This document shows, piece after piece, positions 1 through 60,755 of a DNA stretch of 64,000 nucleotides. Source of the DNA: Marsupella aquatica (lineage: Eukaryota > Plantae > Marchantiophyta); NCBI GenBank assembly GCA_973895155.1, contig OZ316895.1, forward strand, positions 6,034,687 through 6,098,686, in the 5' to 3' direction. Every line of letters starts with the position of its first letter. The stretch's first letter is position 1. The position numbers and the translations under genes were made by a program. Below the pieces are notes generated by a model, which searched no databases, had not been told where the DNA came from, and saw nothing but the letters and a program-made list of their open reading frames with translations.

Positions 1-23
1 TCTTTCCTGAAATACTGTGGCCT

Positions 24-515
24 TTGTTGAGGAAATTGTATCATGCCTTCAATCTTCAACACTACCTATTTATCAATCAACCAAAGTGGTCTATGATCAA
101 TGTTTTATCGGATAGGGATCAACAGGCTGCCATTTATGCGCTGTTGTCGGAGAGGTGGGGTAGTATGGTATGGGTTCCCACTGTTTTCCATATAGTCTTG
201 GATGTTACATCGGACAAAATTCCCTGGGATATCAAGAATGAAGTGCAACAATTGCCACCAATTGAGGAATTGACGGAGGAGGCGATCGAGGACCTTATAA
301 AGACATTAATTGGGGATCAGTATACAGGACCCTATAGAGACAATCATCTGGCATTTGTTTCGGAAATTCTGAGGACTAGAGACCTCACGACTAAGTTCTG
401 GAATAGAAAGCCTCTGGATTTTTGCAATCGCGATATGAAATATGACCCGTCAGGGTCTAGATTTACTTGCTCAAATGAATTCTGTGGGGAGGAGGGTCAT
501 GAGATTTGGGTCTAG
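24..515 (+). CDS. Partial ORF of unknown function, possibly the 3' end of a TE-borne gene
   Basis: 163-codon open frame running in from the window edge and ending in CxxxxC...H. No family recognised. Confidence 0.3.
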   Translation: MLRKLYHAFNLQHYLFINQPKWSMINVLSDRDQQAAIYALLSERWGSMVWVPTVFHIVLDVTSDKIPWDIKNEVQQLPPIEELTEEAIEDLIKTLIGDQYTGPYRDNHLAFVSEILRTRDLTTKFWNRKPLDFCNRDMKYDPSGSRFTCSNEFCGEEGHEIWV

Positions 516-2053
516 ATTATCTCGACCCTACACCAAACACTGATTATTAGTTAGGGGTGTATATTTGCAGAAAAGTGTGAAGCTTACCATAACATCCATT
601 TGGGTCTAAATGTTCTCGACCCTCTACTAAAGAAATAGGGTTTTACTTATAGATACATACTCATAGAAAGGTTAGTCTATTCGGGTCTTAACCCTGTACA
701 AAAAGAATAGTAAGTTAAAGATATACATTCAACAACGGGTTAGAATTATCTGGACCCTCCATTTGGGTCGAGATGATCAGCATATAGATTTTTACATAGT
801 AATTGATATGCATTCAACAACTGGTCAGAACCATCTCGACCCTGTAAAAGTAGGGTTATAATTTTATAACACATCACTTGTTTTCCCGGAGTTCCGTGTT
901 CATGACCCTTGGTTAGAGTGTGTCATTTTTAATGTTATCATTTGAATTTATGGTATTGTCAAACTAATATTGTCTTATTCTATATTTTTATCTGTTTATC
1001 TGTTTATATTTTAATTAATAATATTTATAATTATAACTTAGTTATTTAATAATTTGAGCATTACAATTGTAAATTTAGACTTTGAAAAGTGTACATTTGC
1101 CCACTAAAATGTATGTTTTTGGGGACAATGTTATAGAATTTTGGGGTGTAAAATAATAGATTTGAACGTCAACTTCTAGACTAGAGAAATTCCAGTTTTA
1201 ATGAATAGGGTGATAACTAATATTGTGAACCAAAGCCAGTTCTCCTTGCATTCTTGTTGAAGCATGTAGCCAAAAAGACTACGTTGAGTTGGATAAGGGT
1301 TGCATACAGGGTTGGATACTTCCTATTCTTAATGTGACATGCATCTAAGCTAGTTACATAATCATACTTAGGTTGAGTATAGTTAAGTGACTTCTCTGCT
1401 TGTTGGATGCACAATTAGGCCTTCCGTTAGAGTGTATTTCCGGTTCATCTCTCTTTCTCTGGTTTTTGTCTTTACCCTCACTTTCAATTATGCTTTAATT
1501 AGAAGTTACTCTCTAGAGGCTTCACTCTAGACAACATGCTTTCAACGTAGCTTTCCATCACATATTAGTAGCAGAAGGTCACGAGAAGCACAAGACAATG
1601 TGCATCAATTTACAAGCTGTGATAATATGAGCCTCACCCTTAGTTGACTCTAGTACAATGTACTCTAAAGCTAGGGGCAATTGTCTTGTGACTCCTGGAA
1701 GGCCTTCTGGTCATGGTGCTCATGGCTGAAGCTCCAATAGCAGACAGCTTCCAAACTTTCTGGGCAGGTCTACTTGAGTGCTGGCCAATGAACCAGGTAA
1801 CCATACACTAGTGAGTTAGACTACAGACTTTGGTCTATTGTTCAAGGCAAGGTTCAAAGCTCTTGCTTGACAATGACACACTTGTTTGCATGGTGCTCAA
1901 TTCAGTTGATAAAAATGGCGCACAAGATTACTATGATTGGTCATGGCAGTTTCAAATTGACAATCTGCAATCTGAAAAACCCTACGTACTTCCCAACGTA
2001 CATACAAAAGATTTCAACAACAAACTCTATTGTGTCATAAGATTCATATAAAG

Positions 2054-2085
2054 AACACAATGACGGACCAAACGAGAAGTGTGAC
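2054..2085 (+). repeat. Left terminal inverted repeat
   Basis: Inverted match to 12523-12554 with 2 mismatches, preceded by AAAG. Confidence 0.9.
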
Positions 2086-3148
2086 CACCCTTCTCGTTTT
2101 GCCCGATCGCAAAATCGCGGCTAAGTAAAGAAATCTCCAGTACAAAATGCCCATGAGTGAGAATATTGTTTGTTTTGGAGTCTTGAAAGTGAAGAGCGAT
2201 ACGCGGATCGCTCTTTGCATTGCGCAACCAAACAGTTAAAAAAAATCCACTTGAGACGGTAAACTGCATAAACTGCGCGGTTGACTATGAAACTTAACCC
2301 ATGGTTAATTCTAACTCAACTGTGGTTAACGGAAACTAACCATGGTTAATGGCCAAAACTATATATATGAGTGCCCGGCCGTTCATTTCTCTTTTGGACA
2401 AACACATACCACTTGGTGCTCCCTGATCATTGTTTACCAAGCTGCAAAACTAACCATACAAACCTACATTCGAGTATCAATCGCACGTTTGATACGAGTA
2501 TCGAAGGTTGCATTTGATCCTTATTTTGAACTTGAAATAGGAAAATCGATACCGGTATCGCCTTCTCTATTCCGGTTAGACTTCTTGAGAGGTGTTTTTC
2601 TTTTGCTAGGCCATTTGCGAATGCCCTCGATGATACGCATATCGCAAATTGGATTGCGGACCCAACTTTTGTGTTAGTGGGAAACTTCTGACACCGATAG
2701 CGCCAAACCAATTGAAGATTCACACAGGAAGCTTAGTCTTTTTGCGAGAAGGTACGGGTACCATACTAGGTTTTGATTTTATTTCCATTATAGCGGCCAT
2801 TTGCTAACATTGATCGGTGGTTTCTTAAACAGCTTGTAGAGGCACGAGAAGCATCCGTCACTTTGAAGGTATGGTTACCATAGGATCAATGTCGAGCAAA
2901 CTTATTGGCAAGCCGTATTCATAGGTTGTGTAAGTTCTAGAACATGTATATTTATGAAACCAAGTTATGTAGCCATATGATTTCCAGCTTCAATATGTTT
3001 ACATGTTTGTGGTAAATTCTAGGGTTTGGAGAGAGCGAGACGATACCAGTATCACGGTTGTCATTCGGAAGGCCTACTCCAAAGAGACTGGTATCATAGA
3101 TATCATTAAGTATATTAATCGATTGCACCTACCCTCTAATCCGTAACA

Positions 3149-6100
3149 ATGGCGCCCAGTCAGAGGAGTGGTTCTCAAGATGATGAGAGTTTGATGAGTA
3201 GCCTCTGCTCTTCAATCTGGCAGAATGAGGAGATTTGTGATGAGCAGAAATTCCTGAAGAAGAACTGGCATGTGCGCGACGCTATCAGAATGTTTCCTGA
3301 TAAGGAAATTGACAAACCTTTTTTTTGGGTTCAAATCAAGAAGTCTAAGAAGGTTACCCTTTCATTCGGTCCGGTTGTAGCGTTTGCAGTTTGTGACTAC
3401 GTGAAGGGAAGAGGGAAAGATAAAGAAGCCAAGCAGGCTTTAAATTTCTTGACTATGACGAGGACGAAGCCGTTCACTTCTATTATTCTCGGTGTGGATT
3501 ATTTTGACTTGAAGGCGATGGAAGCACACCCAGAGGATGCAGTTTTCAAGGAGTTGACAGATATTTTCTCTTGCGATTTAAAATTGACCCCTGAATGGTT
3601 TGAGAAATATGTTGTAGATGTGACGAAGTACTGCTGCCACAAGTTCAGGCAGAATACAAGAAGATTTTTGGACAGGATTTCAAAAGACACTAAAATTGAA
3701 AGTCAAGAGAAAGACTGCAGAGGTAAGTGGGAGCTTGACAACACAGGATCAGGTTGACAAAGATCGTGAGGGAGGATCAACCGGTGGAACAAAAGTAGGA
3801 AGTAAAAGTAGAACAGGTGGTCAGCGAAAAGAGACTAGCCAAGGACCGAGTGATGAAGCGGTGAGTGGAGGTGCATCAGGGAGCCACCCGAGAAGGAAGC
3901 GATCCGGTTCTCGTTTGAGTAAAGATGATGACACCATTGGGGAAGTGGAAACCAAAAATTTGAGTGACGTCCAAAAAGGGAGAGACACCACCGCCGCATC
4001 CGAGGGAGCTTTAGAAGTTGAAATGTTTCGACAAGACATTGTAAGTAATGTTTAATCGTTGAATAGTCCAAAGAAAGTGGTTTGATGATTATTTTGGATT
4101 TCAGTACCAATTGCAACATCCGTGAGCTTGTGTTACCTCTTTTGAACATGCGTTATGCGTGACTTTTCAGACAATCAGGTCACTTGTGTTTTGCTATGAA
4201 ATTTATGATACCGGTATCGGTTGAAACATCCCCATTATTGTTTATAAAGCTTTTGTTCCTCTCATGCTTGGAAACCTCATCCTAAGATGTTTTCTATGTA
4301 GGATGGAGACGATCTTACCGCACTTGAAAAGTATGAGACTGATGCCCTGCGCGCAGATCTTTTTGAGTTGATGACGAGTCGTAGAGTACTACGAACTACT
4401 ATTATTTTAAGTGTGAAAAATCTCATTCTTGATGAAGGATCTGATGAATCTACCCTCATCCGCCCGGTGGATCGTTTACATGTGGAGAATATCAAATCTC
4501 TTTTGATCCAAAATCCAACAAATTTTAGCGCACCGTTTGTTCTTCATGTGGACCCAAGTGATTGCCCAACAGTCAAGGATTGGGACCAGTCTAAGTATAT
4601 GAACTGGAAGTATAGAGTGATTGGCGGGAATCATGGTGCCCGGGCGAAGAATGAGTTGTTTGAACAATATGGGAAAAAGATCTTTAGAGAAGTTGAAGCA
4701 TGGGTTTACGCTGGCCTCTCAAAACCTGAGTTTCGAAAATTGGGTTGGCAGCATAACATAGACCAGGAGTACAGGAAGACAATGACAAATACTGATAAAC
4801 TCAGGGCCTGTCATAATTTGTATTTGGAGTTCATGCAAACGAAGAAAAAGGATCTTCGATTTTCTTGTTGCAAGGAGTGTGGCCTTGTGTACAATCCGAA
4901 GGATAGAGAGAGTGTTTCAAAATATGATCCAATGTTTCAAATTGCATTTCGGCACGGAGAAATATGGGATCTTACAGATACAATTTTGACAATGTGGTCA
5001 AAGTTTGAGGTTCTTGGACAGGTGAAGGCGAAGTCTCCTGTAAAGCCTGCTCCTCCCAAGGGCAAAGGGAAATCAAGAGCGAGAGCAAAACCTGTATCCC
5101 AAAAGTTGCACAAACTAGGAGGGGATATCAACTTCTTTCCATTCAGAGCACTTCAAGGTCTTGCAAATGAGGAGCAGCAAAAGCGGTTATTGAGGAGGGT
5201 ATTATCCAAAACTATAAGTCTTGATCAGATGCACCGTGAAGGAGAGCTCTTGAAAAAGCTCTTCAAGATAAGGAAATTGTTTCTCCAAATATCCGGTCAG
5301 CCAGATTGGGCTACATGTCGATTGTTATTTCCTGAAGAAACTCAGGTTTCAGTTCTGACAACGTGGACGGAGAAGTTGAGCGACCAGGTAAAGGAGTTTT
5401 TCATTACTTATATTGTTTTATATAGCTTGAAAGAGAGGAGCGATACCTGTATCTGCTTCTCCATTGAATTATTTGTTATTTTCTTTCATTGTGGGTTCTA
5501 GAGTGGAACCCAATACGGATGTCATTTTTTTTAGATTGAAAAAGGAGATACTGGTATCTACTTCTCCATTGTGGGGTCCTGATTGAATCCCACTACCGGT
5601 ATCATTTTTTGGAGTTTGAAAGAGAGTAGTGATACTGGTATCTGCTTCTTCATTGACTTTTGTGAAGCCTTGCAGCTCAAAGCATACTCCAAAAGGAAAG
5701 TGATACATGTGGAGGAGACCGAGGTTCAGCCGGCAAAGCAGATCAAACTCCCGGCTAAAGACATTCCACATTATTTCCGGAATTTTGTACTTGGAGCGAT
5801 TGAGAAATACAACTGGCAACAGAACATCGCGTCTGTTGAGATTGCTTCAACAGATTACGCCTGGAAGAACGCTGATGGGGATTCTTTCCCTTATTCATTG
5901 CATCTTGGAGATGTTCATCGTTTGGAGGGGTTCTTGAAACCCCAAAATTATACTCTCGCTGTTGCTGATGTACCATATGGTTTTAATGCCCCTGGGTCTG
6001 AGTTTGATGAAGTTCCTTTTTCAGAACAGGATGTCGTCGAGATGGTCACCTCTTTTTCCAAGGTGCCATATTGCCCAAGCTGGAATATGGCAAAAGACAA

Positions 6101-6693
6101 ATATTCATCAACATCCATCTGGCCCAAGATTAGCTTGGGCCTTTGAGAATTGGACCATTGGGTACTACTCGGAGGAAGGAATTCAAAAAAAAGATATGTA
6201 CAATTTTGAGCCAACGGATTCGAGGGTTAACATCATCAGTATCCCTTGTGTCACAACAAAAGCCCTAACACCACTGGGGTTTATTGTTAACCCTTATCAG
6301 AAGCCAGTTGGAGTGTCTGATTGGTTTGTGAATTATTTTAGCAACAAGGGAGATTGGGTGGCAGACTTGTGCTGCGGGACAGGGGCAACTTTGGTTGCGG
6401 CCCTTTTGAATTCTCGCAACGGATGCGCGGTGGATAAGAGCTCTACTCAAATTGAGTATGTCAAAAGTCAAATCATGACTTTGGACTCTGCTTGGAGTCT
6501 ATTTGACAAAGCCTCAATTGTCGGAGATGGAGAAAGCTCTAAGGAGGTTCAACCTCCCATTGGCGATGAGCTAGGTTCAATTGGAACGGATGCTTATGTA
6601 AACGAGTCGCCAAGGGAAGATGAAACTGAAAATGAAGAGCAGCTTCCGCAGATGCCCAACGATGAGGATCTTAATGAAATGTTGTTAGATTAG
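3149..6693 (+). pseudogene. Transposon-borne ParB/Srx-like domain + beta-class N6A/N4C DNA methyltransferase fusion; 3 predicted exons (3149-4040, 4302-5387, 5676-6693), 2 frameshifts
   Basis: Phase-0 GT-AG introns 4041-4301 and 5388-5675 join the ORFs in frame. The ParB-like signature reads IRPVDRLHVENIK...PFVLHVD...YRVIGGNHGARA...AWVY...HN. MTase motifs appear in beta order: LHLGD, catalytic ADVPYG (DVPYG at 5967-5981), IWQK, NPYQKP, then SAM-binding VADLCCGTGATLVAA..RNGCAVD. Frameshifts occur near 3692-3695 and near 6063. Confidence 0.8.
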
Positions 6694-7804
6694 TTAAATA
6701 AAACATTATGTAATATGCCACTCTTAGTTGTCATTATTAGAGCTACATGGGATTTGTACTTAGTAAATATTAAATCTGATACCAGTATCTGGAATATCAT
6801 ATGTAGCTTTATATCAGTATGTACACTTTCCAGATGATAAATACTACTTGCAATACCAGTATTGGAAATCATATTCCAAACGGAGAAGGAATCAAATAGA
6901 ACCCAATTAAACTGCACTTTGGATGTCTATTCTAAACTGATGTGGGACTGTTTTCTATCGAGTGAAATAGTGCGACACTTTCTATGCAACTCAAACTTCA
7001 GTAGTCCATCAAGAAAATTCAGGGTGATTACTAAATGTGAACTTGTGTAAATTGTCTAGACAACTTCTGTGCAATGGATCATTATATCCAAAGCACGGAG
7101 GTTGTCAAGACAGTCTACATGAGTTATGTTCACATTTTTACAAGAGGGCAGTTGGTTTGTTAGTCAACAACCATCAAACTGATGTGTGCAAGGCACAAAA
7201 CAACAAAAAATACAATGGAAACTATAAAATTGATGATGTTTGTACCTCAGATGTTTTTAAACGTCTGAGGTAACTTCATCATCGATGCTATTCAGAGTAT
7301 CATTATGCGATGCAATACTATGAATATGACCCCATTTTGGGTTTGCTCTAAACAGCTCCGAAAGCATACCTTCTCGAGATTGCAAATGCAATATCTAGTC
7401 CATTAATATTCGTGAACTCGATCTTGCATTCAATCTCACGAAGGCAAGCTTTCGGAATGAAGTAACCACATTTAGTGGCTTGAAGGTGGCTTGTTTGTCA
7501 TTTGGTAAGTTATTGTTTCTGTACACGGTTTATATGGCAATCGGTACACAACAAAGCAAGGAGCGATACTGGTATCGTATCTGGTTTTTGTAGTCATCTT
7601 TTTACATGTGTGAGAGATACTAATTTTGCTCGATGGAAATTTATTTTCACTATAAGGTATTGGTACACATTCGACACTGATACGTTTTGGTACACATTCG
7701 ACACTAAAATACATTACCATTCAACAATATGTCCAAAAAAAAGCCGCTTCTTTATAATAAAATACTATTTACGATACCAATATCAATAACCACATTTGTT
7801 ACAA

Positions 7805-10800
7805 CTACAAAATTTCTTCAAGCTGTACATCTAGCATGGCTGCCTGAATAATTCTTCGTGTTTTTGCTGGCAAGGTGTTGTTTGCATTCAAAGAAAAATT
7901 GTAGGCATAAATTGCAGTTTCAGAAAGGCAGATCTCTCCATGCAGAGCTTTGTTTGATGATGCTTCCTTCTCAGGATAATATTTTCCTTCAATTGCTGAC
8001 AGCTCCTCAGAATCCATCGTGTACCATGATACCAATATTGTCAGGCACTTCATCAACCTTGGTCAGTATTTTGGTAACCTTTGCCATCCAAAAAGGCCTC
8101 CCATTTTGATCTGCATGGGCTGCAACACAAGTCATTGAATATTTGTTATTTACTTCAAGAATCTCCTACCTCGGAAATCCTCTTCCGAGCTCCACAGTAC
8201 ATGGCCTTCTCTGGACCTGCAATTTTCTCAATGAGATCAGGTTCAATTGTAGGCGCCCTCCCATCCATCAGGGTCTCTCGATGCTTGTTTGATTTTGGCC
8301 AGACCCAATCAAACATCCACTGTGCTGGCTTGAGGTGATTTTGGATGACATCTTCCTGTTTGTCAAAGAAATTCAGCCACCACAACTTATCCTTGTCGTC
8401 AAAATAATTGAATCCCTCCTCAATCGCTTTCCAATATTTCTCCAATGTTTCTCTTTCTACTTCACCAGTAGCATCTGCTCCGTCCCCTCCATTGGTGCTT
8501 TTCAACGCCATTTGAGGTGCAACCCAGAATGTGGTTGTTGGGATGTAATTCACAAACTCCATGGGATCACCCCAACTTGGGGTTGTTGAAATGTGTTTGG
8601 CATGAAACAAAACTTTTGGAATTCCATTTTCCCCAATCACACGTTTATTTGGAATTGCTTTTGAAAACTGATCTGATGAAGTGGTTGCAAAACATGCCCG
8701 GTTGCCCCAGTCCTGTTGGGTTGATCTTTATCGCTCACAAACTTCCAAAAATCCGCTGTTTCTTCTACAAATATTATCTCAGATTTGGGATTGTACGAAC
8801 CCTGTATAATGTCAACAAGAGTATCCACTCGGAAAGCTTTGCGTTTGTTCAGTTTTGAGGAAAATTTGCTGAACATTTGGTCTATCTGATCATGTGTGTG
8901 GCCAACCAGCAGAAATCCAACCTTGATCTTCTGGAAAACCCCCAACTCTACAAGCATATTTAAGTAAGCAAACAAGAATTTATTCTTGTTCTCCCGAGCA
9001 GTGTTATCCAACTGTAAATATAGCACCGGAGGTAGCACTCCCTCCCAAGTATTCAAAATATTTTGAATAACATGGATTGTAAGGTTAGAGTCATTGTGAA
9101 TATTAGGGTAATTGACATATACCTTGGCCTTCAACTGACCATTGAATATCAAACTGCCCACCACATATAGAGATAAAATATTTCTCATCCATGTTTTTTG
9201 GACATCTGGTGAAGTGCGGTAACTCCGTCTTCATTTGGTCCATCCCATCAATACATATCCGCAAGTACTTTTCTGGGTGCTTGTAACATTTATTCCGGTG
9301 CTTTGCTAATTTCTCCCGCTCGACTCCTTGTGCTGTGCGATGCTTTTTCAACAACATAGCATACTTACCTGAGAAATATCAAATCGGTAACAAAGTTATT
9401 ATAAAAACATTATTGCAACACTAGACTGCTGGTCTATTGGCATTTTGAGGTGTGTGGCAAAAACCATCTTCCAATGCCAAGACCTATAAATTTATAGGTT
9501 TTGGTATTCTAAGCTCAACAACACATCCAATTCCAATCAATATGGATAAAACAAAAACTTACTTTTCTCTGATTCGAGCGTAGCTTTGTCACAGAGAGCT
9601 TTGAATTCTGTGCATGGACCGCAAGTCGAAAAACAACTTCTTTTTGGAATACAAACTCGAGGAAAATGTTGCTTCCATGTCCGACAGAACCAAGAATATG
9701 TAACCCCTTGTTCTTGGCGCAACAGAGTTTCAGTTCGGAAGGCATCAAAGACTTCAGCTTTCGTCCAATTGTCAGGCAAATGAAAAATTTCCTTATTGGG
9801 AAGTCTTTCAACGTTACTCCTAAAAAAATCATTTAACCACTCTATTAAAGTAAGATGAGTGGAGGATTTTTCTCTACAAAATACATTGTTCTCGATACGA
9901 GAGAACATATTTTGGGTTATCCTTTGAAGGCGATTATTTCCAATTGAAAATAATTTCTTAAAACCTTCTCGACAAAAAGAGTTTCCAGACACACTGTACC
10001 CGCATGACCCACTCTGGTTATTCCTAACGCATCCTCTTAGAAGTATATTCTTCTCTCCACGGGTCAGGCCAAAATAATAGGTACGCTCTTTCGTTACTTC
10101 AAGTAAACCGAAAGTCCTCAAACACATATTGTCACAACATGGATACTTGAACACTTCTTTCATTTTTCTCCTCTTTAAATTCTCACTTGTAACAATGTCT
10201 TTCTTGGCTATCCTATCCCTATGTTTCTTACTAGGGACTTTCAGTTTCACCCTATCCTGAAATTCCCTTGTTGAATCATCGCTTCCATGGTCTTCACAAA
10301 CCTCTTCGATGACGTCCTCATTGTCAGTGTTTGGCTCACTGAAAAGGTGGCTATAGCTACTCTGTGGCTCATCGCCTCCATCATCAGCTTCTAAACATTC
10401 TAACACAACTTGTGCAATTACTTCGGACTCTCTATCGTGTACAGAGGCATCTTCCAGACTTTCTTCATCACCAGAATCATCAAAAGATTCAGAACATACA
10501 ATTGGAGTTCTGGGTTCTCTAAACTTGACTTGAACTATTGCATTACGAGAAATACCTACCCTAGGTAACCCATACCTTCTAACTGGAAATCTTGAAATAG
10601 TACCCGTCTGAATTGGCGTTGTCTGTGGACTATTCTCTTTAGGACCATTATCCTCATTTGGACAAGATTCAAAAAGTCTATGCATACACTTTCCTCGAAG
10701 CATTCAAGATTGAGTGGAGATAGGACTTTGGAGTCCCATGAAAGCCACCCTATCAGTGGATGTCCGCCCCAACACTGGCAATGCTCAAGGCAATACGCGT

Positions 10801-11237
10801 ATCGTCTTTGGTATTCGCGACTCCGTTGGCTCTCGAAAAATCCTCCTTTGCACCTGAGAGCTAGTGCTCACTGAATTTCTCGGATCCAATCCTGACGCCG
10901 ATACCTGTATCGTTCTTCGGATTCCTTCTCCATATCCGGGAATATATGGATGGTTTATAACAGCGTCGAGCTCCCAAACCTAGTATTGTAAGTTTCTCTA
11001 TTCCTGGTCGAAGAACACTCAGTAGACGTTGTTTATCTGGCTTACTAGGGGAGACATATAATAAGACCCTATCTCTGGCGCAGAACCACCGTTTGAGTCT
11101 GAACCGGAATCCAAGAGTTCGGGTATGACACGCTGGGACGGGGAAAACTTCTTCAAGATATGAGAAGGTAGAAATCTTGTTTGAACATTAGGAGATGACT
11201 CCACAGAACTCTCTTGGGAATCAGATGTACGAGACAT
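7805..11237 (-). pseudogene. Transposase, Sola-like/DUF7869-type DDD family, frameshifted
   Basis: Segments 9537-10703 (Cys-rich CCDNMC, CREGFKKLF, FSTCGPC), 9103-9357 (ICIDGMDQMKTELPH), 8637-9188 (LYLQLDNTARENKN...FLLVGHTHDQIDQMFS), 8155-8640 and 7805-8056. Predicted intron 9369-9562. Frameshifts near 9185, 8640, 8160 and 8030. The 5' start is uncertain (ATG 11237 is a candidate). Confidence 0.85.
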
Positions 11238-11402
11238 GATGAATCAAAAACTCTATGGCAGTTCACATTCGTCTCTTGAACCTAGTGTTGCAAAGCTTGT
11301 CTCATGAACTTAGGGAAGAGAGATAGGGAGCAGAGAGATCTAGACAGCGGAAATGACTCCCGACCTCTAATGGAATGAAGTCCGATAACTTGAGCGTCCG
11401 CG

Positions 11403-11450
11403 CTTTTATAGTCACTGTGGCGGAAGATTTACGTGGCAATTTTTGATTGG
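11403..11450 (-). promoter_or_regulatory. Candidate TATA box (CTATAAAAG) and CCAAT box for the transposase
   Basis: Minus-strand CTATAAAAG at 11403-11411 and CCAAT at 11446-11450, upstream of ATG 11237. Motif match only. Confidence 0.35.
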
Positions 11451-11573
11451 CTCCCGCTAAGTGGCAAAATAGTCTAGAGTCGGGCCCCCATAATTGGTCC
11501 CTGTATCTGAGTTTGGAATTGATGTTTGAATTTGAGCAACATTTAAATTAAGGTGGTCAAAAAGGTGAATGGC

Positions 11574-11990
11574 AATACCAGTATCGCTGTTTGCATTGGA
11601 GTCATTTAAATGTGATCCTGGAGGACGACAAATACCGGTATTGTTATGTTTATTGGATTGGCATTAAAGGTTGTCGGGAGAAAAAGCTATACCGGTATCG
11701 CGGTCTGTATTGGAGTGGTGTTTACAGGTGGTCAAGGAGGAAGAGAGATACCGGTATCGTGGTCTGTATTGGAGTGGTGTTTACAGGTGGTCAAGAAGGA
11801 AGAGAGATACCGGTATCGCGGTCTATATTGGAGTGGTGTTTACAGGTGGTCAAGGAGGAAGAGCGATACCAGTATCGCGGTCTGTATTGGAGTGGTGTTT
11901 ATAGGTGGTCAAGGAGGAAGAGCGATACCAGTATCACGGACTGTATTTGAGTGAGGATTACAGGTGAACCGGGAGGAAGAGCATCACCAG
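11574..11990 (+). repeat. Subterminal tandem array, 59-bp unit (about 4.5 near-identical units plus degenerate ones), each containing GATACCRGTATC
   Basis: Palindrome cores at 11688, 11747, 11806, 11865 and 11924 give a period of 59. Degenerate units at 11574 and 11631. Confidence 0.95.
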
Positions 11991-12522
11991 TTCGCTAGAG
12001 GAAGGACTAAGAAATGAGTCCGGAACAATTACAAATGGACATTGCCATTTGTATTCTTGTTTCAACGTTGACAATGAAATTTTGCAAACTACGTGGTGAA
12101 CTACGAGGTAACTTCAGCTGACTGTGTGGTGAACTTTGATGTAAAAAAATATTAGAATGTGGTAAATATTTCAAAACCTTCGTTTTATGAAAGAAACGGC
12201 AAACAAAGTTGAATGGAATTCGAGGAGCGATACCGGTATCGGAGTAGTTTTGTTTTCTTGATCTGTTTTCCTTGTAACCAAAAGTTCTATTTTCAAAATC
12301 TAACCAAAATGGAAATATTTCTGGGTTCTATTGTCGCAATGAAAATGTTTGAAGTTAGTGAGGATATTGAAATTCACAATTTGGGATGAAGCCATCATTC
12401 CTCGCGAAGTTGGGAACGATATGAAGTAGTCGGTTTTGCATGATTTTGCAAGAAATGTGTCGCGCACATTGTGAAAATCGGCGAAAATTGATCAAAATTG
12501 AAAACACCCTTCTCCATTAGGC

Positions 12523-12554
12523 GTCACACTTCTTGTTTGGTCCGTCACTGTGTT
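12523..12554 (-). repeat. Right terminal inverted repeat
   Basis: Inverted match to 2054-2085, followed by AAAG. Confidence 0.9.
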
Positions 12555-13180
12555 AAAGTTATTGTGGCATTGGTGGAAGTGGCAGCACACTCCGTCGCTT
12601 GTGTACAAAATGTATCATTTTCCGTGATATACTGTTGTGGTAAAATTAGATAACTGAGCTATAAAACATGCAATCATCTTTTTATCAACATGTGCCCACA
12701 AATAGTACATGATGGTTTACTCTGTCTAGGTTACATCAATGTCGAAGAGATGAGAATTCACTAAATACGAGACTAAATAATATGAACTAACACCATACAT
12801 CTGCTACTCTATGATTTGTGTCAGAGAACCCTTACACAAAGCATCTCATAGAGTGCATATTCCCGTGCATATTATTTAGTGAACTCTCGGCAACTAGCTA
12901 CTCTATGAGTTGATTCTCTTCTCTCTCTCCAATCTTCAAGTCTTGAAGACTCTCTAGTGTGAGCACGATAAAGTGCTCCTCCAGGTTACAGGCTCTCTTC
13001 ACTAAGTAGTCTAACTCCAGCACCCGTTAACCGTGGTTAAGCTGTGCTAATTGAGTAAACCTCACCAGGCACTAGAGTTCAGTCCCACCATATAGATATC
13101 TCTGGCCTTGCAGCTTTGACCTTTTGAATGACTCACTTTGTTCCACTCTACTGGCCATATATGCTACAAAAGTGTTGTTG

Positions 13181-13467
13181 CTCGGGGGGTTAACTTAGTG
13201 TATATTTTGGGGTATCATGTGCGATCCTAGCCTAATATAAACACACCTATTTTATAATGGGAATATTCTAAAAACATTCTTTATTTTCAATATTAATGAC
13301 CTATTTTACTTTATAAAAGATATATATTAGAGAATATTCTATAAATATTGGTCTATAATACCTTCTTTTGCTTCCTACGCTTTTTAAAAATTTAGCTAAT
13401 TTCTATGAAAAATACCTATTTTGGATCGCACGTGGTTCCTAAGATTTTTGATAGTCAACCCCCCGAG
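13181..13467. mobile_element. MITE, 287 bp, 15-bp TIRs, 8-bp TSD
   Basis: CTCGGGGGGTTAACT (13181-13195) pairs with AGTCAACCCCCCGAG (13453-13467), 1 mismatch. TGTTGTTG is duplicated at 13173-13180 and 13468-13475. The interior is AT-rich and non-coding. Confidence 0.8.
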
Positions 13468-16400
13468 TGTTGTTGATGTTCATCTTCTTACTCTTCATCT
13501 TCAAATTTGAGCTACCAGTGTTTTGGTTACTCAGTTGCATAAGTATTCTCTAGTAAGTACTGCCTTTGTCATCATTGTCATCAGGTGTACACGTTTTGAA
13601 CTTGATCTGACAATCTTTCAAAATTTGCTAAAATGAATACATTGCTCTACAGTCAAATGTAGTGTATTTGGATATGGCTTGACTAGTGAGTCTATCATTG
13701 TAGGCACCAAACAATTTAGGTACCAATCAAACTTGTCAAAGCTATTGAACTCTCGGGGTCCTCACTTCTTTTCTTCCAACCCATCATGCACGAATAAATA
13801 CAAAGCTTTTTTATTGGGTTTAGTGAAAGACTTTTAAACTTTTGTTGAAGAACATTAGGGTTGTTTTAATCCAGTTTTGAGAATTATAAGAATCATAGGG
13901 TTTTTAAAAATCAGATTTAAGAATATTCCAAGAATGTTCTATTAAGTTAGGGGTAAAACAAAAAAACTTTATTGACATAAGTTTTAGGGTGTTTATTGAG
14001 TGTTTATTCCCCCAAAACTTTGCGTGTGATATGGGACACCCCTTGGATTGAGGCCGTTGAGATTGAACTGCTCACTGAGCTTGATTCAATCAGCCTGTGC
14101 TGCCAATGTAATAAAGGAAGATATGCCATCTCACCACAATGTGTTTACAATAATGTCAACCATGAAGCTTTTACATGGACTTTGAGATCACAGTTTAAAG
14201 CTCCAAAGAGCCCCCCGGGAGAGTCCAAATGAATTCTACCTTCTTCAGGACTCTTGCCATCCAGCATCCTAGGGGTTCTCAACATTCCTGCAAGCCCTTT
14301 GATGTTAATATATAAATTCCTGCCTTCATGCCCACTCTTGATTGGGAATATCAACCTCCCAGACATTGCCTAGCTATGGTCCACAGATATATGCATGTAC
14401 AAGAGTTGTCCTCTATTCTTGACATTCTGCCTCTAGAAGTACTAGATACACATTGGGGGAGTGGAAACACTCATGATCGTGCCATGCAGAGCCCATGCCC
14501 TCGCCTCATGCGCAAAGCATGCACATCAAAACAACCTTGTGTAAAGAGCCAACTGAAGGTTGTGTCAAAGATTTGTAGCATGTCAATGTTTTGTAGGTTG
14601 ATTGAGCTGCAGCTTAGCAATTAAGTGCGCATTGTGCATGAAATATTCCAGATTTCACCTAACTTATGATATTTGTGTACATACACATTTTGATTTTGAG
14701 GGGCAGGAAGTTGTATCACACCTCTAACTATTTGAAAACATTGTGGGTAATGTACACAACTTGGATTCTAATTGCCACCGACACCATTTCTTGCTGGGCC
14801 TGCATGAAATGGCTATTTCAAAACTAGCTGTGCTTGCAGTCAACTGCGTTTGCCAATCCAATAAATTGGACACTCAACATGTGAGTGGTAGATGATCCAG
14901 GGTCCTACAACTGAATTCTTCCGTGATTTCTTTTGTGTGTTATAAAGATGCTCAATGTAAGGGCTTCTGACACAAATTGGTACCATGGGTGGGCCCCACA
15001 GGTCCATTCGGGGAGAAATGGCATATTTTGGTCCAAGAGAGAGGATGGCCCCAAAGATGTCTCTCCAGGAGGTCCGTTACTTATACTTATCAATAAAAGG
15101 TTGTTGAAGAGGAAATTTTATTACTGATAGGTCCCTACTATTATATATTTTACGTAGAGCATAAGCAGGATATCTGGAAATAAGACCCCAAACTCAAAGA
15201 CCCCAATATAGGGAAAAAACAAAGGAAAAAGCATGGAAGACCAAAGTCAGAGCCCAAAAAGCCAAAAAGCCCAAGAGCCAAAAAGCTCAAGAGTCCAAAC
15301 TGCAAAAGAATTACAACCCTGGCCACCTAGTCTGACAAGCCTAGTACAGCCCTTACTCTTCTGGTCTGCCCAATTTGCTCGTTTAGAACTTTATAACAGT
15401 CATATGGACCCATTTAATACTTTACACTACTCAACCTGCCATTATTTCACACTACTCAACATTTCATTATAATTGGCTGCAAAGTTCAACCTGAATTGAT
15501 GGGTCCCGGTCCCGGTAAGTGCACATCAAAATCTGACATATATGGTGTATGACATCACTCCATACCACTATAAATCTAATTATTTTATTTAAATCAATGA
15601 GTGTACACCATATAATAACACATTTTGATGTATGATTATTGGTGAGGCCCTAAAATAGCCTCAGAACAGACTGTAGAACCTATGTGTTTGAAACTATATT
15701 ATTATATTGTCAACATTGTATTGTTTAGTTTATTGTGACCACATAACTTTGGTCACAGACCTGGTTTTATTAGATTTTAATTAAGAATCTGCACACAAGG
15801 GAAACCGCCTGGCCAGATAAACATGCCGTTGTTGTCTAGTGAGTGCTACTACCAATGTAGTTCATGTCTCTTGGGAATGTTTTTCTATCGGACTCTACAA
15901 TTTTGAAGGGCCTAGATAACTTTGTGACGACTGTACAATATTGCAATAAGATAAGATATGTTGTAACTGGAGTCTGAGCTTATTTCTTATCGCTCTCGAA
16001 ATCTGGGGATCCTATCTGTAACAAGTGTCTGACCAGTGGCGTATCGAAGCACATTTATTTAATGTGAAAGGCACAATCCTTGGACAGTCCTAGCTCATAA
16101 CCCATACTGTACCGCGCAACTCCTGAGTACCCTTGGGACTGTAGCTTGTCGTATTTTTTCGAAATATTAGCACTCCATATGAGTCATCGATCTTTGAAAC
16201 AGACGATTTAGATTTGCTCACAGGAGAGATCAGAACTTCAAAATAAGCGGAAAATAAGTTTACTGCGGTCATGTCAAGTTCCTCAATTTGCTTTGTTCTT
16301 GCCCAAGGAGAAAACAGAAAATGTGATTAGAGGCCTGTAATTTACCATTTTTATTGGTCTATGGCCCAAGCTGGGTGCGGAGGACGGTGAAGAAGAAAGC

Positions 16401-55977: not shown

Positions 55978-58900
55978 TTATCGGAGAAGCCCTAAGAACT
56001 TGAGGATAAAGGTATAAACAAATGCTTTTTCCTGAAGCTTATCGAATCTGCAATTATAAGAGAACACCGAATAGCAACTAAGCAATCAGTGCTCAAATTC
56101 AACAGAATAAGTCCCCCGTTCCCCAACCCTGAATACTTTAAACAGCCCAAACAGAAATTGATATCAGTGGGCAAAAAGAATAGTAGTTTAGAAAAACTTC
56201 ACAGGCACAGACCTGCCCGACTTGGAGAAATGGCCAGCACCCATATCACACTTGAAAAGCAGAACATTCTTATCCGTCTTCTTCTCTCGTAACAATGCTG
56301 TGAACTTTGCAGGTTCCCAGTACGCCACTCTTGGATCTGTTCACAAAATCTAGAACTGAGATCTCTAGGGATGCTATTTTTTCTTAAAACCAATTCGTCT
56401 AAAGCTCAAAATATGCTCAATGTACTCTGACAAAGACCTGAATCAGCTCAAAATAAGGGAAAGGAGATCTTGAACCCACCATGGAGACCACCAGTGATTA
56501 ACGTATGTGGATATTGCTGTGCTTTAACCTTGAAAACAACAATCAGTCCAAAGGAATCAATGATCAGCTCAAACTGTAGGATGGTAGGAGTCGTGCGAAA
56601 TTTTGCGATAGTAGTGGTGTGGGGTACTAGAAGCGGTAGAAACTAATTACGGATGGAATGAAACAGACTTGCAAAGATATTTCACCTAAACTCAGGTGAA
56701 ATAAGCTGAGCAATGCGCTTAGCAAGAAAGCAAATTGATGTTTGCATAGTCACTCACGTTGTCCACAGGGGAGTAAGAACGCATGTACTTATAGAACTCC
56801 TCCTTAGCGGGATTACCCCATTCCTGCGTTGAGGAAAGCCAACGATTATCAATGATGCGTGGAAGAACCCATTTTCCAACCCACTTCGTGATGGAATGTT
56901 AACATATGAGCTACAGACAGCGTTTACACCACCATAACTACAAAAAACACCATCCACGCTGCAACGATCATCGATACCAGACGTCTGAAAACGTGATCCG
57001 GAGTTCCAATCTTGAAAGAGTTTTCCAACAAAGCCTGCTCTTCAATATCTTTCCGAATTAGTTCCTATTACTTGATCTTGATTCGGAGTTCCAATCTTGA
57101 AAGAGTTTTCTGACAAAGCCTGCTCTTCATTATCTTTTCACCGATTTCATGCTACCTGATCTCGATCCGGAGTTCCAATCTCGAAGAGTTTTCCAACAAA
57201 GCCTGTTCTTCCTTATTTCCTTCAATTATCTCATATTACTTGAAAAACTATCAGTTGCAAATAGAGCATGTGAGCTTCAATCCCTACTTCACTTGTAGCA
57301 TTAAATGACCATACCTCCCATTCCGCGGTTGTTAAAGGAATGGACGCATCCAGCATTGTTGCCACTACATCAACAAATGCCACCTCAGCAACAGCTGCAG
57401 TGAAAATATCTGGGCGCATTGTCATGACGGCACCAATGAGAAGCCCTCCTGCACTCCGTCCATTTATACAAATCCTGTTCTTCGCCCCAAATTTGTTGTC
57501 TATCAAATACTCCGCGGAGTCGATAAAATCAGTAAAAGTATTCCTCTTGAAAAGGAGTTTGCCATTCTCATACCACTTCCGCCCCATTTCCCCTCCACCT
57601 CGAATGTGGGCAATTGCAAAAACTATCCCTCTGTCCAATAAAGATAGCCTATTTGAGTCGAACTCGGGATCAATGCAGATCTGTGAAGAAAGCACGGTAT
57701 TAAAACTTGTACGCTAAACTTCGTTGTAAATGAAAGACAGCAAATAACGTCAAGATCACTGCAATCTGGTACAGTTTAAGGGCTCCTTACCTCATAAGAA
57801 CCATAGCCGTACAACATCAATGGATCAGTCCCATCTAACTTTACCAGATCTTTCCTGTATACGATGGAAATAGGAATGAGGGTTCCATCCTTCGCTGTTG
57901 CCCATTTCCTGGCAGTCTCATAGTTATGTCTGTCGAAATCTCCAAGGACCTGTGTAATAAAATCTCTTAAGTGTCATGCGACATCTATACTAACGGAGCA
58001 AAAATTATAGAGTAGGAAGCTTTTAACAAGTTTCTACAAAGCCTTAGCAGTGTCGGAATTTCAGTTACTGTCCTTCGCGTACATACGATTCAGAATGACA
58101 AAACTATTTGCTACTAAGTCTTGCACAGTAACTCCATTACTGATCAGGTCATCACTTAGACCCCAGGAACATGAGACACTTCCTTAACGCCGAACGTCCT
58201 TTTAGATCTATAGTGGTATTACTAATGGCGAAATAATGTCCCCCTGTTTTTGTCCAGGTAGAAAACAAATGACAGCTCTAGTGACAAAAGGATAGAAACC
58301 CACCGGATGGATCTTCTTCAAAACTGCCTCCCCTGTATTCATGTCGTAGTCATAGATTGACGAAGGTGTGCTCAATGAACTGTAATTATAGCGAAAAATA
58401 GGTGAGTTGTATTGACTCTGTGTCTGCCATACGCTGTAAGCTGGTTCTGGAAATTGAACTTTTTCGCCGTTACCAAGACTGGTTATTGGCTCACCAATTG
58501 AAGGAAGCTTGTATATGGTCAATGTCACCAGTCCATTCTCCCGCTCCTCAACTATCAAATGGTCAGTAGAGGTCCCGATGGACTGCAACTTCACACTACA
58601 TGGCAAACGAAATGTTAGAAACCAGTCGATCTATAACAAACCATCACAATTTTCTACAATAATGATTATGATGGTAGAGTCAGATAGAGTCAATGATCCA
58701 AAGAAAAGCCTCAGGGGCATAAAGCTGCCGTTAGCTGAAATACTATAAGCTACACACCTTGGCCTATGAGGAAGTAGGGTAGTTGTGGCCGAAGGGTTGT
58801 CCACAGGTGCTACAAGTAGTTCAGAGTTATAGAACTCGTCACTTCTTTTAGTGATGAAGAAGTGATCTCCCCTATGAGCAGCCGCAAAGTCAACACCTTC

Positions 58901-60755
58901 CACTCTCTGGGTCAAGGGCTTAAGCTCTCCGTCCGGGTTTTTCTTGTCCAGAAAAAGGACAAATTGAGTGACTTTGCTGCCAGAATACACCATGAAGTAC
59001 ATGTCACTGTCTGTCGATGATATCTCCAACCAGTGCTCGACGTCTTTCTCATGGTAAAGCAGCTTATCTTCAGACTGTTCTGACCCTACTTTGTGAAGCC
59101 ATACCTGCACAGCCACATAAGAGTGAGATCCAACAAAATATCCTAGGAGATGGGAATGACATCTAGTCGACACTTGACCCAACCCAAACTCCAGAGAAAT
59201 GAATTTGCAAACAAGAATTCCAATTCTACAAACCTTAAATGGCCGCAGAGTTTCATCTTGAGTGACGTAGTATAAAGTGTTGTTGTCGCCCCATTCTACG
59301 TTTTCAGTAGTTCCAATAACTGGACTCCCAACATCTTGTTTGGTTTCTATGTTGACGACGCGATTAGTGTAGATTTCATTTCCTGTGAAATCTTCCGACA
59401 CTGAAAAGAACTTGTGGTCTGGACTAACCTAAAGTAAGAAATTTACAGCCAATAAGAATCCAATAAGAATCCAAACGAATCACGTTGCAGCTAAACAAAA
59501 ATCAAAGTTTCACACAGGACAATCATGAAGTACGACGACAGCACATCAAAATCAAAGAAGGCGATATCAAAAGCGTAATGTCTAGCACACACTGTCGCAT
59601 TGACACTTACCTTCAAGGCTCCAACCATGTAAAATTCATGCTGCGCAGCCACGGCATTTTCATCCAGAAGAATCTCCTCCTCCTGAGCTCCGGCAGTCTC
59701 CATCACTTCCCCCACAGTCCCAGGTCCCTCGCCACCAAGAATTGGACGCCGACAGAAAACTGGATACTGCTTTCCAGTCACATCCTTACAGTAGTAAAAG
59801 TAGGGACCCTTCCTCAACGGCACCGATCTATCATCTTCTTTGATTCTCGCTCGCATTTCTTTGTACAAGTTTGTTTGAAACTCTTTAGTGTCTGCACAGA
59901 CCAGGTACTTCTTAGTCCGTGTCGTCACTTAAAATTTCCTCGCCTGGTAAGAGAATCCGCAAAACTAAAGAGAATTTTCCGCTGATAGGGGGAAACTATA
60001 ATACACAGCCCTAATCAATTTCAACAGATTGTGTGCATCCTGATCATGCTTGACGTTTCTCATTTTAGCCCATTGCAGCTCCAGTGGGAAAAGCATCCGC
60101 AAGGTGACGGAGCATTGTTTTCCGGGTAGGCCAATTCAAAAAAACCAGCCAACTGAACTTTAACATCTCGTGTGCTTCACTACTCTGCTCAACATTTTCC
60201 CCTTTGCCACATTAGAAGCTCGAGTAGTGAGAATGGGCATTCACAATCCGGACCTGCCATGACAGCTTCAGTGTACTCATTCTCGGCTTTCAGGTAAGCC
60301 AAAACCTCCGGATCCTTCCGACTATCATCACGCAGCCAGTAGTAATCATCCTCCTTCACATCTCCAAAATGCTCCGACGTGTGAGGCTTCTTCGTCACCT
60401 GCGGCGGCTCCAAGTCGCCGACGCCCACTGCCATGGCGCTCACCGCTCGGCAACTACTCCTGCTCGCTCTCCCGAAATCACCTAATTCCTCCGAAAGAAA
60501 TTTCACACTCAAGGCTTTGGAATTGTTGTTAGACAGCTTCGGCAGCAGCCAAGAACTCGTGTTGAGGCTCAGAAATGTAGGCCCCCTTGTTGGCGATGTC
60601 CGTGAAAGCAGCTGGGAAGGAACAGCAACCGTGCTATGAAATCGAGGCACTCGAATCCCACATGGCTCGCTACAGAGTGCGGACATGCGCCTGCTCAGAA
60701 ATCCCGAGTGCTGTAGAAGTAAACTTCTCTGCAGGACGTCTTGGAAGTGCTGCAT
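55978..60755 (-). CDS. Oligopeptidase B (protease 2, prolyl oligopeptidase family S9A) with an N-terminal organellar transit peptide; multi-exon
   Basis: DDYYWLRDDSRKDPEVLAYLKAENEY, beta-propeller exons, HIRGGGEMGRKWYENGK, catalytic Ser in GRSAGG, EWGNP...SYSPVDN (56823-56758), catalytic Asp in DPRVAYWEPAKF, catalytic His in GAGHFSKSGR, and terminal exon FDKLQEKAF...LLR* with stop at 55978-55980. Confidence 0.93.
56995..57212. repeat. Intronic tandem repeat, ~85-bp unit x3
   Basis: CGGAGTTCCAATCT..AAGAGTTTTC..ACAAAGCCTG occurs three times within an oligopeptidase B intron. Confidence 0.85.

Follow-up and report, generated by a model that had tools for sequence, protein, structure and literature searches.

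The window analysed here is a 64,000-nt stretch of the genome of the liverwort Marsupella aquatica (contig OZ316895.1, positions 6,034,687 to 6,098,686), and towards its left end lies a DNA transposon of 10,501 nt (10.5 kb, window positions 2054-12554) that carries a transposase gene, a gene predicted to join a ParB-like domain to an amino-methyltransferase, and many copies of one palindrome. A preliminary description of the stretch had proposed 32-bp terminal inverted repeats (TIRs), an AAAG target-site duplication (TSD) and two convergent genes, all of which were borne out. The TIRs are 94% complementary over 32 nt, AAAG stands on both sides, the minus-strand gene matches DUF7869 (PF25273) at an E-value of 9e-48, and exon 3 of the plus-strand gene matches N6_N4_Mtase (PF01555) at 2e-7 (Table 1). 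With TIRs, a TSD, an empty site, several insertion sites and a DDD (three-aspartate) transposase all found, the element is a multi-copy cut-and-paste TIR transposon.

The empty site comes from sequencing run X5, where 2048 directly adjoins 12554 in one contig; the 10,505 nt left out equal the 10,501 nt of the element plus 4. This contig is single and diverged (depth 4.16, with 121 nt on its short side), so that it may stem either from an orthologous empty allele or from a paralogous repeat. A 5-bp duplication, TAAAG, is compatible with the same joint but would give asymmetric ends, and for that reason the 4-bp version was retained. Contigs that depart from the element at 2054 into dissimilar flanks (12 in X5 and 22 in X6) indicate many insertion sites, and one X5 contig that bridges over 2353-11465 is likely an internally deleted derivative. 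The element is contained in six of the eight public sequencing runs listed (four studies, none recorded as RNA), with all 30 bins covered in X1, X2 and X5 and 24 of 30 in X6. Contig depths in X1 are similar for the methylase (174), intergenic (192) and transposase (175) regions, a hint, depth being no copy number, that the two genes travel together; the contig with the left junction of this insertion has a depth of 19.

Both genes are damaged in this copy by frameshifts or a deletion. In exon 3 of the methyltransferase gene the frame break at 6065-6077 amounts to a net loss of 86 nt, and letters of frame-restoring length, for this lesion and for those of exon 1, were found in contigs of X1, X2 and X5, which are unphased and do not tie the letters to a single intact copy.

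The transposase

The transposase gene of this copy contains several frameshifts and stops, and 124 longer homologues (E<=1e-10) were recovered from liverwort, fern, charophyte and marine invertebrate genomes. Three aspartates are conserved in their alignment, within the motifs DGMDQ, QLDN..ENKN and GHTH..ID. A sequence search of the PDB with this alignment gave no meaningful match, and the term 'DUF7869' had no match in a full-text literature search.

Comparison by eye points to a Sola-like but unassigned enzyme with a Sola1-like second-aspartate motif. Sola elements possess a DDD transposase, a 4-bp TSD, TIRs and a large size, and occur in hosts that include non-flowering plants (PMC10741241; here and below, statements on published work refer to those parts of each source that were available), and the element resembles them in all of these respects. 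Its YLQLDNTARENKN parallels states 83-94 of the Sola1 profile (lysDncagqNkn; PMC5751038 supplement), whereas the preceding stretch reads gRgsneias in Sola1 and HNDSNLTIH in the element. The part of the Sola2 profile that was compared shows no likeness to the element transposase, and the Sola descriptions consulted do not mention a methylase gene such as the element carries.

A ParB-like domain joined to a methyltransferase

The second gene was modelled with three exons from homology, and 13 related loci, on contigs of 1.1-5.0 kb, were compared with it. In exon 3, the motif DVPY (motif IV) precedes the S-adenosylmethionine (SAM) motif DLCCGTG, and because the order of motif IV before the SAM-binding motif I defines the beta class (PMC10406627), the domain is a beta-class amino-methyltransferase, in agreement with the preliminary description. 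Its nearest relatives are phage enzymes with 22-31% identity (phrog_67, E 2e-14). The best NCBIfam model is CcrM, far under its cut-off, and in a PDB search with the methylase of locus L001 the solved beta methylases came no better than E 0.14-0.26, behind chance antibody matches. The DxP[YH] and SAM motifs are intact in loci L001, L002, L008 and L009, and the ParB and methylase domains show purifying selection, with proportions of synonymous differences (pS) of 0.67-0.84 against nonsynonymous proportions (pN) of 0.10-0.14 in the pairs L001/L002 and L008/L009; two closer pairs of AT-rich loci have nonsynonymous-to-synonymous rate ratios (dN/dS) of 0.34 and 0.55. The SPPY motif of N4-methylcytosine (4mC) writers was not found, the plant members examined having DxP[YH]. 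An aspartate at motif IV leans towards N6-methyladenine (6mA) without deciding the matter (PMC8885841), and the base written would more likely be 6mA than 4mC.

Some distant members of the family are of separate interest. P0053, P0097, P0151 and P0072, of echinoderm/hemichordate type, retain the SAM motif region and read DMPQ, DMPK or DVPN at motif IV. Four deep-branching members from ENA/JGI (P0106, P0107, P0150 and P0083, the first two with a canonical DPPY) may help to root the family and to find a prokaryotic or viral source.

A ParB-like domain had also been proposed, and it is upheld by the predicted fold of exon 2, a Pfam scan of which found no ParB match. A word-indexed search among longer proteins likewise found nothing, and full HMMER recovered 156 relatives. 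Prediction from the single sequence was unusable (predicted local distance difference test, pLDDT, 37), and an AlphaFold2 model from a 94-row alignment reached 91.8. Of the Foldseek matches of this model, all 12 displayed with E<=0.001 belong to ParB or Noc (6sdk leading with E 7.7e-6), and structure comparison with VIA gave Z-scores of 10.9-8.6 for ParB, Noc, PadC and KorB, in alignments that span model residues about 31-327 and include the DNA-binding helices (upper ends 316-327). For instance, 7bm8 aligns at Z 10.6 with a root-mean-square deviation (rmsd) of 2.3 over 97 residues; the match of Spo0J (4umk) to model residues 161-318 has Z 5.9 and is weak on its own. As modelled, exon 2 has the ParB N-domain fold followed by a helix-turn-helix. 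A PDB sequence search with the exon alignment gave no meaningful match, and searches of phage records, of viral contigs and of prokaryote genomes (the last sensitive to close relatives alone) found no relative of the exon. The motif matched once in each of two viral contigs, neither of which codes for a related protein; these matches were taken as chance.

The cytidine triphosphate (CTP) pocket was compared at residues R60, R103, R104 and N136, together with E102 and E135, of Caulobacter crescentus ParB, in which the first four are needed for CTP binding and E135 for hydrolysis (PMC8367383). In a register set by motif rather than by superposition (hhalign of the family alignment to SopB gave no alignment), the family retains R54 (43 of 52 rows) and N152 (75 of 78) and has histidine at 111 (70 of 78) and at 151 (62 of 78), while position 112 is mostly S, G, N or T, with arginine not among its six commonest letters. 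Thus the family reads G-N-H-[S/G/N/T] where ParB has G-x-R-R (GSRRR in SopB), and H-N in place of E-N. In this inferred register the CTP-binding residues of the ParB clamps are not present as a set; the pocket appears conserved, but not in the form of a ParB CTPase. Since the CTP arginines appear to be replaced, CTP-driven spreading is doubtful, and the ParB-style loading and spreading envisaged in the preliminary description is its weakest step. That the protein spreads as a CTP clamp, by analogy with ParB, is unlikely.

The top language-model look-alikes of exon 2 are fungal DUF3723 clusters (score 0.96), which suggests that DUF3723 is also ParB-like. The likeness is a lead only, with no Pfam DUF3723 match by hidden Markov model, and a full-text search found no literature combining DUF3723 and ParB. 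DUF3723 occurs as an auxiliary gene of Starships.

Palindromes in the element and its relatives

With one mismatch allowed, the palindrome GATAC-NN-GTATC occurs 22 times in the 10,501 nt of the element, against 0.2 expected from shuffles. It had been described as confined to the element, which holds apart from a single chance-level site at 20163 in the 53,499 nt outside (1.4 expected), around which no element homology was found. Coding sequence makes up 59% of the element, yet 20 of the 22 sites are non-coding (P 1.6e-6, or 3.7e-5 with the 59-bp tandem array counted once). They occupy the introns of the ParB-methyltransferase gene and spots kilobases from the ends, and a separate motif adjoins the TIRs. 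The centres of 10 of the 22 are CA/TG, against six with CG.

Five of the 13 related loci carry palindromes of their own, picked out after inspection. Locus L001 holds 17 sites of GAGAC-NN-GTCTC, many with one GATAC half, and L002 holds eight; L003 has three sites mixing GATAC and GAGAC half-sites, L008 six copies of CATG-ATAT-CATG, and L009 three of CATG-CTAG-CATG. In a dyad test without a preset motif, L001, L002, L003 and L008 exceed all 20 of their shuffles. The intron 2 position with palindromes is shared by the window, L001 and L002, and the tail-to-tail region of L002 also has two. The differing motifs of L008 and L009 lie at equivalent intron and upstream positions, in loci whose ParB exons are 81% identical and whose synonymous sites are saturated. 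The dispersed sites of a family thus change in concert and persist while neutral DNA turns over, and in this they resemble selected protein-binding sites. Furthermore, the GA[G/T]AC and CATG motif groups correspond to two clades in a quick tree of the ParB domain (Shimodaira-Hasegawa-like approximate likelihood ratio support 100 and 98).

Seven AT-rich loci (L004-L007 and L010-L012), nearest to Ginkgo Gb_37443, have extra introns, DIPH at motif IV and no array, and may be decayed, domesticated or too short. This group represents several diverged copies, and the observed-to-expected (o/e) CpG ratio of L005 is 0.37. Separately, L008 contains on its minus strand (2-703) an open frame of 234 aa, divergent from the ParB-methylase gene, with two palindromes and no match to the transposase set; perhaps it represents the low-complexity beginning of a transposase arranged head-to-head.

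Pairing of the two genes across lineages

On the metagenome contig L002, whose ParB exon is 52% identical to that of the window, the methylase gene stands tail-to-tail with the end of a DUF7869 transposase, as in the window. In Riccia sorocarpa, R1sor_010796 of the methylase family lies between the DUF7869 genes 010795 and 010797, and R1sor_019129 and 019130 form another such pair, as do CBR_g31112 and CBR_g31111 in Chara braunii. These pairings were read from adjacent locus tags with partners on equally long contigs, and tags give neither orientation nor TIRs. One JGI ParB-methylase and one JGI DUF7869 protein each lie on a contig of 8,915 bp, inferred to be the same one. Named members of the ParB-methyltransferase family occur in Chara, Riccia, Adiantum, Ginkgo, Holothuria, Ptychodera, Haliotis and Actinia, and the quick tree places the window gene among streptophyte sequences.

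Because the pairing recurs in L002, Riccia and Chara, the two genes were not brought together by chance capture; with the arrays of the relatives, and with intact motifs under purifying selection, the three-part architecture of transposase, ParB-methyltransferase and palindromes put forward in the preliminary description is real and conserved. An abalone cluster of ParB-like proteins (P0068 and P0152-P0154, from four Haliotis species and within one 90% cluster) has no methylase and a weak Tudor-like C-terminal match, and is possibly a domesticated gene.

A methylase addressed to its own element?

The reading that we favour, at somewhat better than even confidence and from sequence comparisons, is that the ParB-methyltransferase binds the palindromes of its family and writes a non-host methyl mark on its own copies, keeping them expressed or mobile. 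The ParB-like helix-turn-helix would bind the family-specific palindromes as a dimer, and the bound protein would tether the methylase in cis on its own element. The tethered enzyme would then mark element copies with non-host methylation, 6mA being likelier than 4mC, and the mark would keep them expressed or mobile, an anti-silencing like that of VANC achieved with different parts. With some 20 sites dispersed over it, the 10.5 kb would be covered by simple tethering, without any spreading.

The steps differ in strength. That the predicted helix-turn-helix, as a dimer, is the palindrome binder is probable: the element encodes a fold whose bacterial counterparts bind palindromes, its own palindromes lie in and around that gene, and another motif sits at the TIRs. 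ParB itself binds short palindromic parS sites (PMC10547168). That the methylase has activity and exerts it in cis on its own element we hold to be slightly the better bet. That the mark counters host silencing as VANC does is a tentative proposal by analogy. It is favoured because the palindromes share the distribution and family specificity of the motifs that VANC binds, which lie in introns, in intergenic DNA and in terminal regions and vary from one family to the next (PMC5735166). A reported link between 6mA and the transcription of transposons (PMC4738411) points the same way.

Several observations weigh against this reading. Palindromes in other copies had been anticipated, and eight of the 13 related loci (the seven AT-rich, Ginkgo-like ones and one distant) lack a repeated dyad above their shuffles, their contigs being 1.1-4.6 kb long and largely coding; L009 ties with its shuffles. 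Since the motif groups follow the tree, the link between palindrome and protein is phylogenetic and no proof of co-evolution, and the transposase may be the palindrome binder instead. PF01555 scores above its cut-off in nine of the 46 longer matches scanned, and in animal members motif IV reads DMPQ, DMPK or DVPN or the methylase is missing. Some counts also speak against an invariable association with the transposase. The transposase is reached in one of the 13 related loci (L002), CBR_g31112 as annotated has no methylase domain, and adjacency involves, in lists that are incomplete, two of eight methylase-family loci and three of 50 DUF7869 tags in Riccia, and one of nine and one of two in Chara. 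Most listed Riccia DUF7869 genes are thus without a listed methylase neighbour, and many DUF7869 families probably have no ParB-methyltransferase gene. Finally, the CpG o/e of the element is 0.69, against 0.67 in the distal window; as this ratio is not raised, and as so many site centres are CA/TG, there is no sign of protection from 5-methylcytosine (5mC) in this copy.

A different purpose is conceivable for the same binding steps. Hemimethylation gates transposition through Dam in IS10 and IS50, and also in maize Ac. The protein could methylate the palindromes as a replication timer, the hemimethylated sites behind the fork licensing transposase expression or excision. Every site is palindromic with symmetric adenines, sites cluster upstream of both genes and 144 and 314 bp from the ends, and a cut-and-paste element that jumps soon after being replicated raises its copy number; many sites, however, lie in introns and in the 3' intergenic region, away from ends and promoters, and we judge this purpose unlikely.

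The dispersion of the sites also recalls KorB, which has a dozen palindromic operators spread over RK2 and is among the fold matches (8qa9, Z 9.3, 200 residues, rmsd 4.8). Binding might then repress or organise the element, by autoregulation or end pairing, with methylation secondary or directed elsewhere. Animal members, which retain the ParB part with the methylase degenerate or missing, would fit such a regulator, but the catalytic and SAM motifs of the plant families are under strong purifying selection, and we regard it as quite improbable.

In several superfamilies the transposase binds subterminal motifs that are repeated, and the palindromes could likewise be transposase sites, with the ParB-methyltransferase gene a long-standing passenger whose role is unrelated, such as methylation across the genome to the benefit of the element. 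Eight loci hold the gene without palindromes, and Marchantia DN4MT1 methylates genome-wide (bioRxiv 2021.02.12.428880). Against this, the sites concentrate in the introns of the methylase gene itself (window, L001, L002, L008 and L009), a distinct motif adjoins the TIRs, and the element encodes a palindrome-binding fold, which leaves the passenger role more improbable still. A selfish module akin to restriction-modification, in which the ParB/Srx-fold pocket (R54, H111, H151, N152) is nuclease- or toxin-like and methylation protective, would account for the two conserved histidines in place of the ParB arginine and glutamate and for the ParB-fold nucleases annotated among viral fold matches, but is scarcely credible given that broken copies such as that of the window persist with all sites intact.

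Relation to known systems

The closest parallel to the proposed self-addressed methylase is VANDAL/VANC of Arabidopsis, where a DNA transposon likewise carries an accessory gene and family-specific, partly tandem non-coding motifs (PMC5735166). Unlike the element, VANDAL has a Mutator rather than a DUF7869 transposase, the accessory protein here combines a predicted ParB fold with a methyltransferase domain, and the motifs are palindromic; the element resembles that family in design without belonging to it. VANC removes 5mC, whereas the element protein would add a mark. With ParB/parS, Noc/NBS and KorB/OB the element shares the N-domain and helix-turn-helix fold and many dispersed palindromes on one replicon; in contrast to them its gene is eukaryotic, contains introns, is fused to a methylase, is without ParA and has apparently altered CTP residues. 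Other neighbours are the beta-class methylases of phages and the methylases of ParB-terminase loci (PMC4738411); phage enzymes are the nearest relatives of the methylase part, only at the identities given above.

Among eukaryotic methylases, the clades described in that source (haptophyte FHA fusions and a chlorophyte-type Dam with a ParB helix-turn-helix) are not transposon-borne streptophyte genes, and DIRS elements carry inactive methylases (PMC4738411). DN4MT1, found in a liverwort, and N4CMT are also prokaryotic-type beta-class amino-methylases in eukaryotes (bioRxiv 2021.02.12.428880; PMC8885841), but are host genes with SPPY, for which the parts of these sources that were available mention no ParB domain, and bdelloid N4CMT silences transposons (PMC8885841). 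A full-text literature search, outside which subscription papers lie, brought up no account of a DNA transposon that carries a ParB-methylase gene, in line with the preliminary description, and the architecture is apparently undescribed so far.

It is possible, at a little under even confidence, that an ancient eukaryotic transposon lineage recruited ParB/parS-type addressing fused to an adenine methylase, giving each family a private 6mA/4mC epigenome. Such a lineage would reach from charophyte algae into the land plants and have marine invertebrate relatives, and each family would evolve its own palindrome-protein pair, escaping host silencing or timing its jumps. If so, transposons would have, besides VANC and independently of it, an enzymatic means of managing their own chromatin; no eukaryotic parS-like system would precede this one, and plant amino-methylation would have a source that has gone unrecognised. 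The reality and the writers of plant 6mA and 4mC are debated, and the element names a candidate writer, likely sites and genomes (Riccia, Chara, ferns and Ginkgo). Sister families with different palindromes (L008/L009, or L001/L002 against the window) suit a specificity swap, and palindrome-diverged families possibly constitute orthogonal site-directed methylases.

Layout of the element and other features of the window

Table 1. Features of the transposon, in window coordinates
Feature	Position	Strand	Remarks
Left TSD, AAAG	2050..2053	n/a	sequence and empty-site joint
Left TIR, 32 bp	2054..2085	+	starts AACAC; contigs with loose ends at 2054
Subterminal motif CACCCTTCTC	2086-2095; again at 12505-12514		directly inside left TIR and near right TIR
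Six palindromes upstream of ParB-methyltransferase gene	2198..3095		2198, 2491, 2548, 2632, 3042, 3084
Exon 1, N-terminal domain of no known family and low-complexity linker	3149..4040	+	34% identity to L001/L003
Exon 1 lesions, two 1-nt deletions	near 3618 and 3681	+	letters present in other copies
Intron 1, GT-AG, inferred	4041..4301	+	contains palindrome 4207
Exon 2, ParB-fold N-domain (as modelled) and helix-turn-helix region	4302..5387	+	open, 362 aa; GGNH at 4623-4634
Intron 2, GT-AG, inferred	5388..5675	+	80-bp tandem duplication; palindromes 5442, 5547, 5631
Exon 3, beta-class amino-methyltransferase	5676..6693	+	DVPY 5967-5978, PYQKP, DLCCGTG 6364-6384
Exon 3 lesion, frame break	6065-6077	+	11 letters here, 97 in other copies
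Tail-to-tail intergenic region	6694..7804		palindromes 6778, 7565, 7773
DUF7869 DDD transposase gene, broken	7805..11237	-	ATG at 11237, stop 7805
Transposase introns, inferred	9562-9369; 8169-8120	-
Putative catalytic D residues	DGMD 9238-9249; QLDN 9006-9008; GHTHDQID 8880-8882	-	alignment of homologues
Two palindromes in 5' coding part of transposase	10792, 10900
Seven palindromes upstream of transposase	11574..12240		five within 59-bp x 5.4 tandem array 11677-11995
Right TIR, 32 bp	12523..12554	-	inverted-repeat comparison
Right TSD, AAAG	12555..12558	n/a	sequence and empty-site joint

The tail-to-tail region contains imperfect hairpins at 7224-7291 and 7357-7456, beside which short frames (7028-7273) resemble decayed coding sequence. 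No Rfam family was matched within window positions 1-15000. To the right of the element, a very high-copy short element at 13181-13467 has inverted ends (CGGGGGGTT..ACT) and contigs that exit both ends into dissimilar flanks, and is likely a miniature inverted-repeat transposable element. To the left, at 1033-1215, lies a high-depth AT-rich repeat; one contig joins 1213 to 13270, and blastn between these two repeat regions found no match. Much further to the right, a host gene with introns that belongs to the prolyl oligopeptidase family (Peptidase_S9, S9_N) occupies 57231-60824 on the minus strand, with an N-terminal extension that resembles a targeting peptide.

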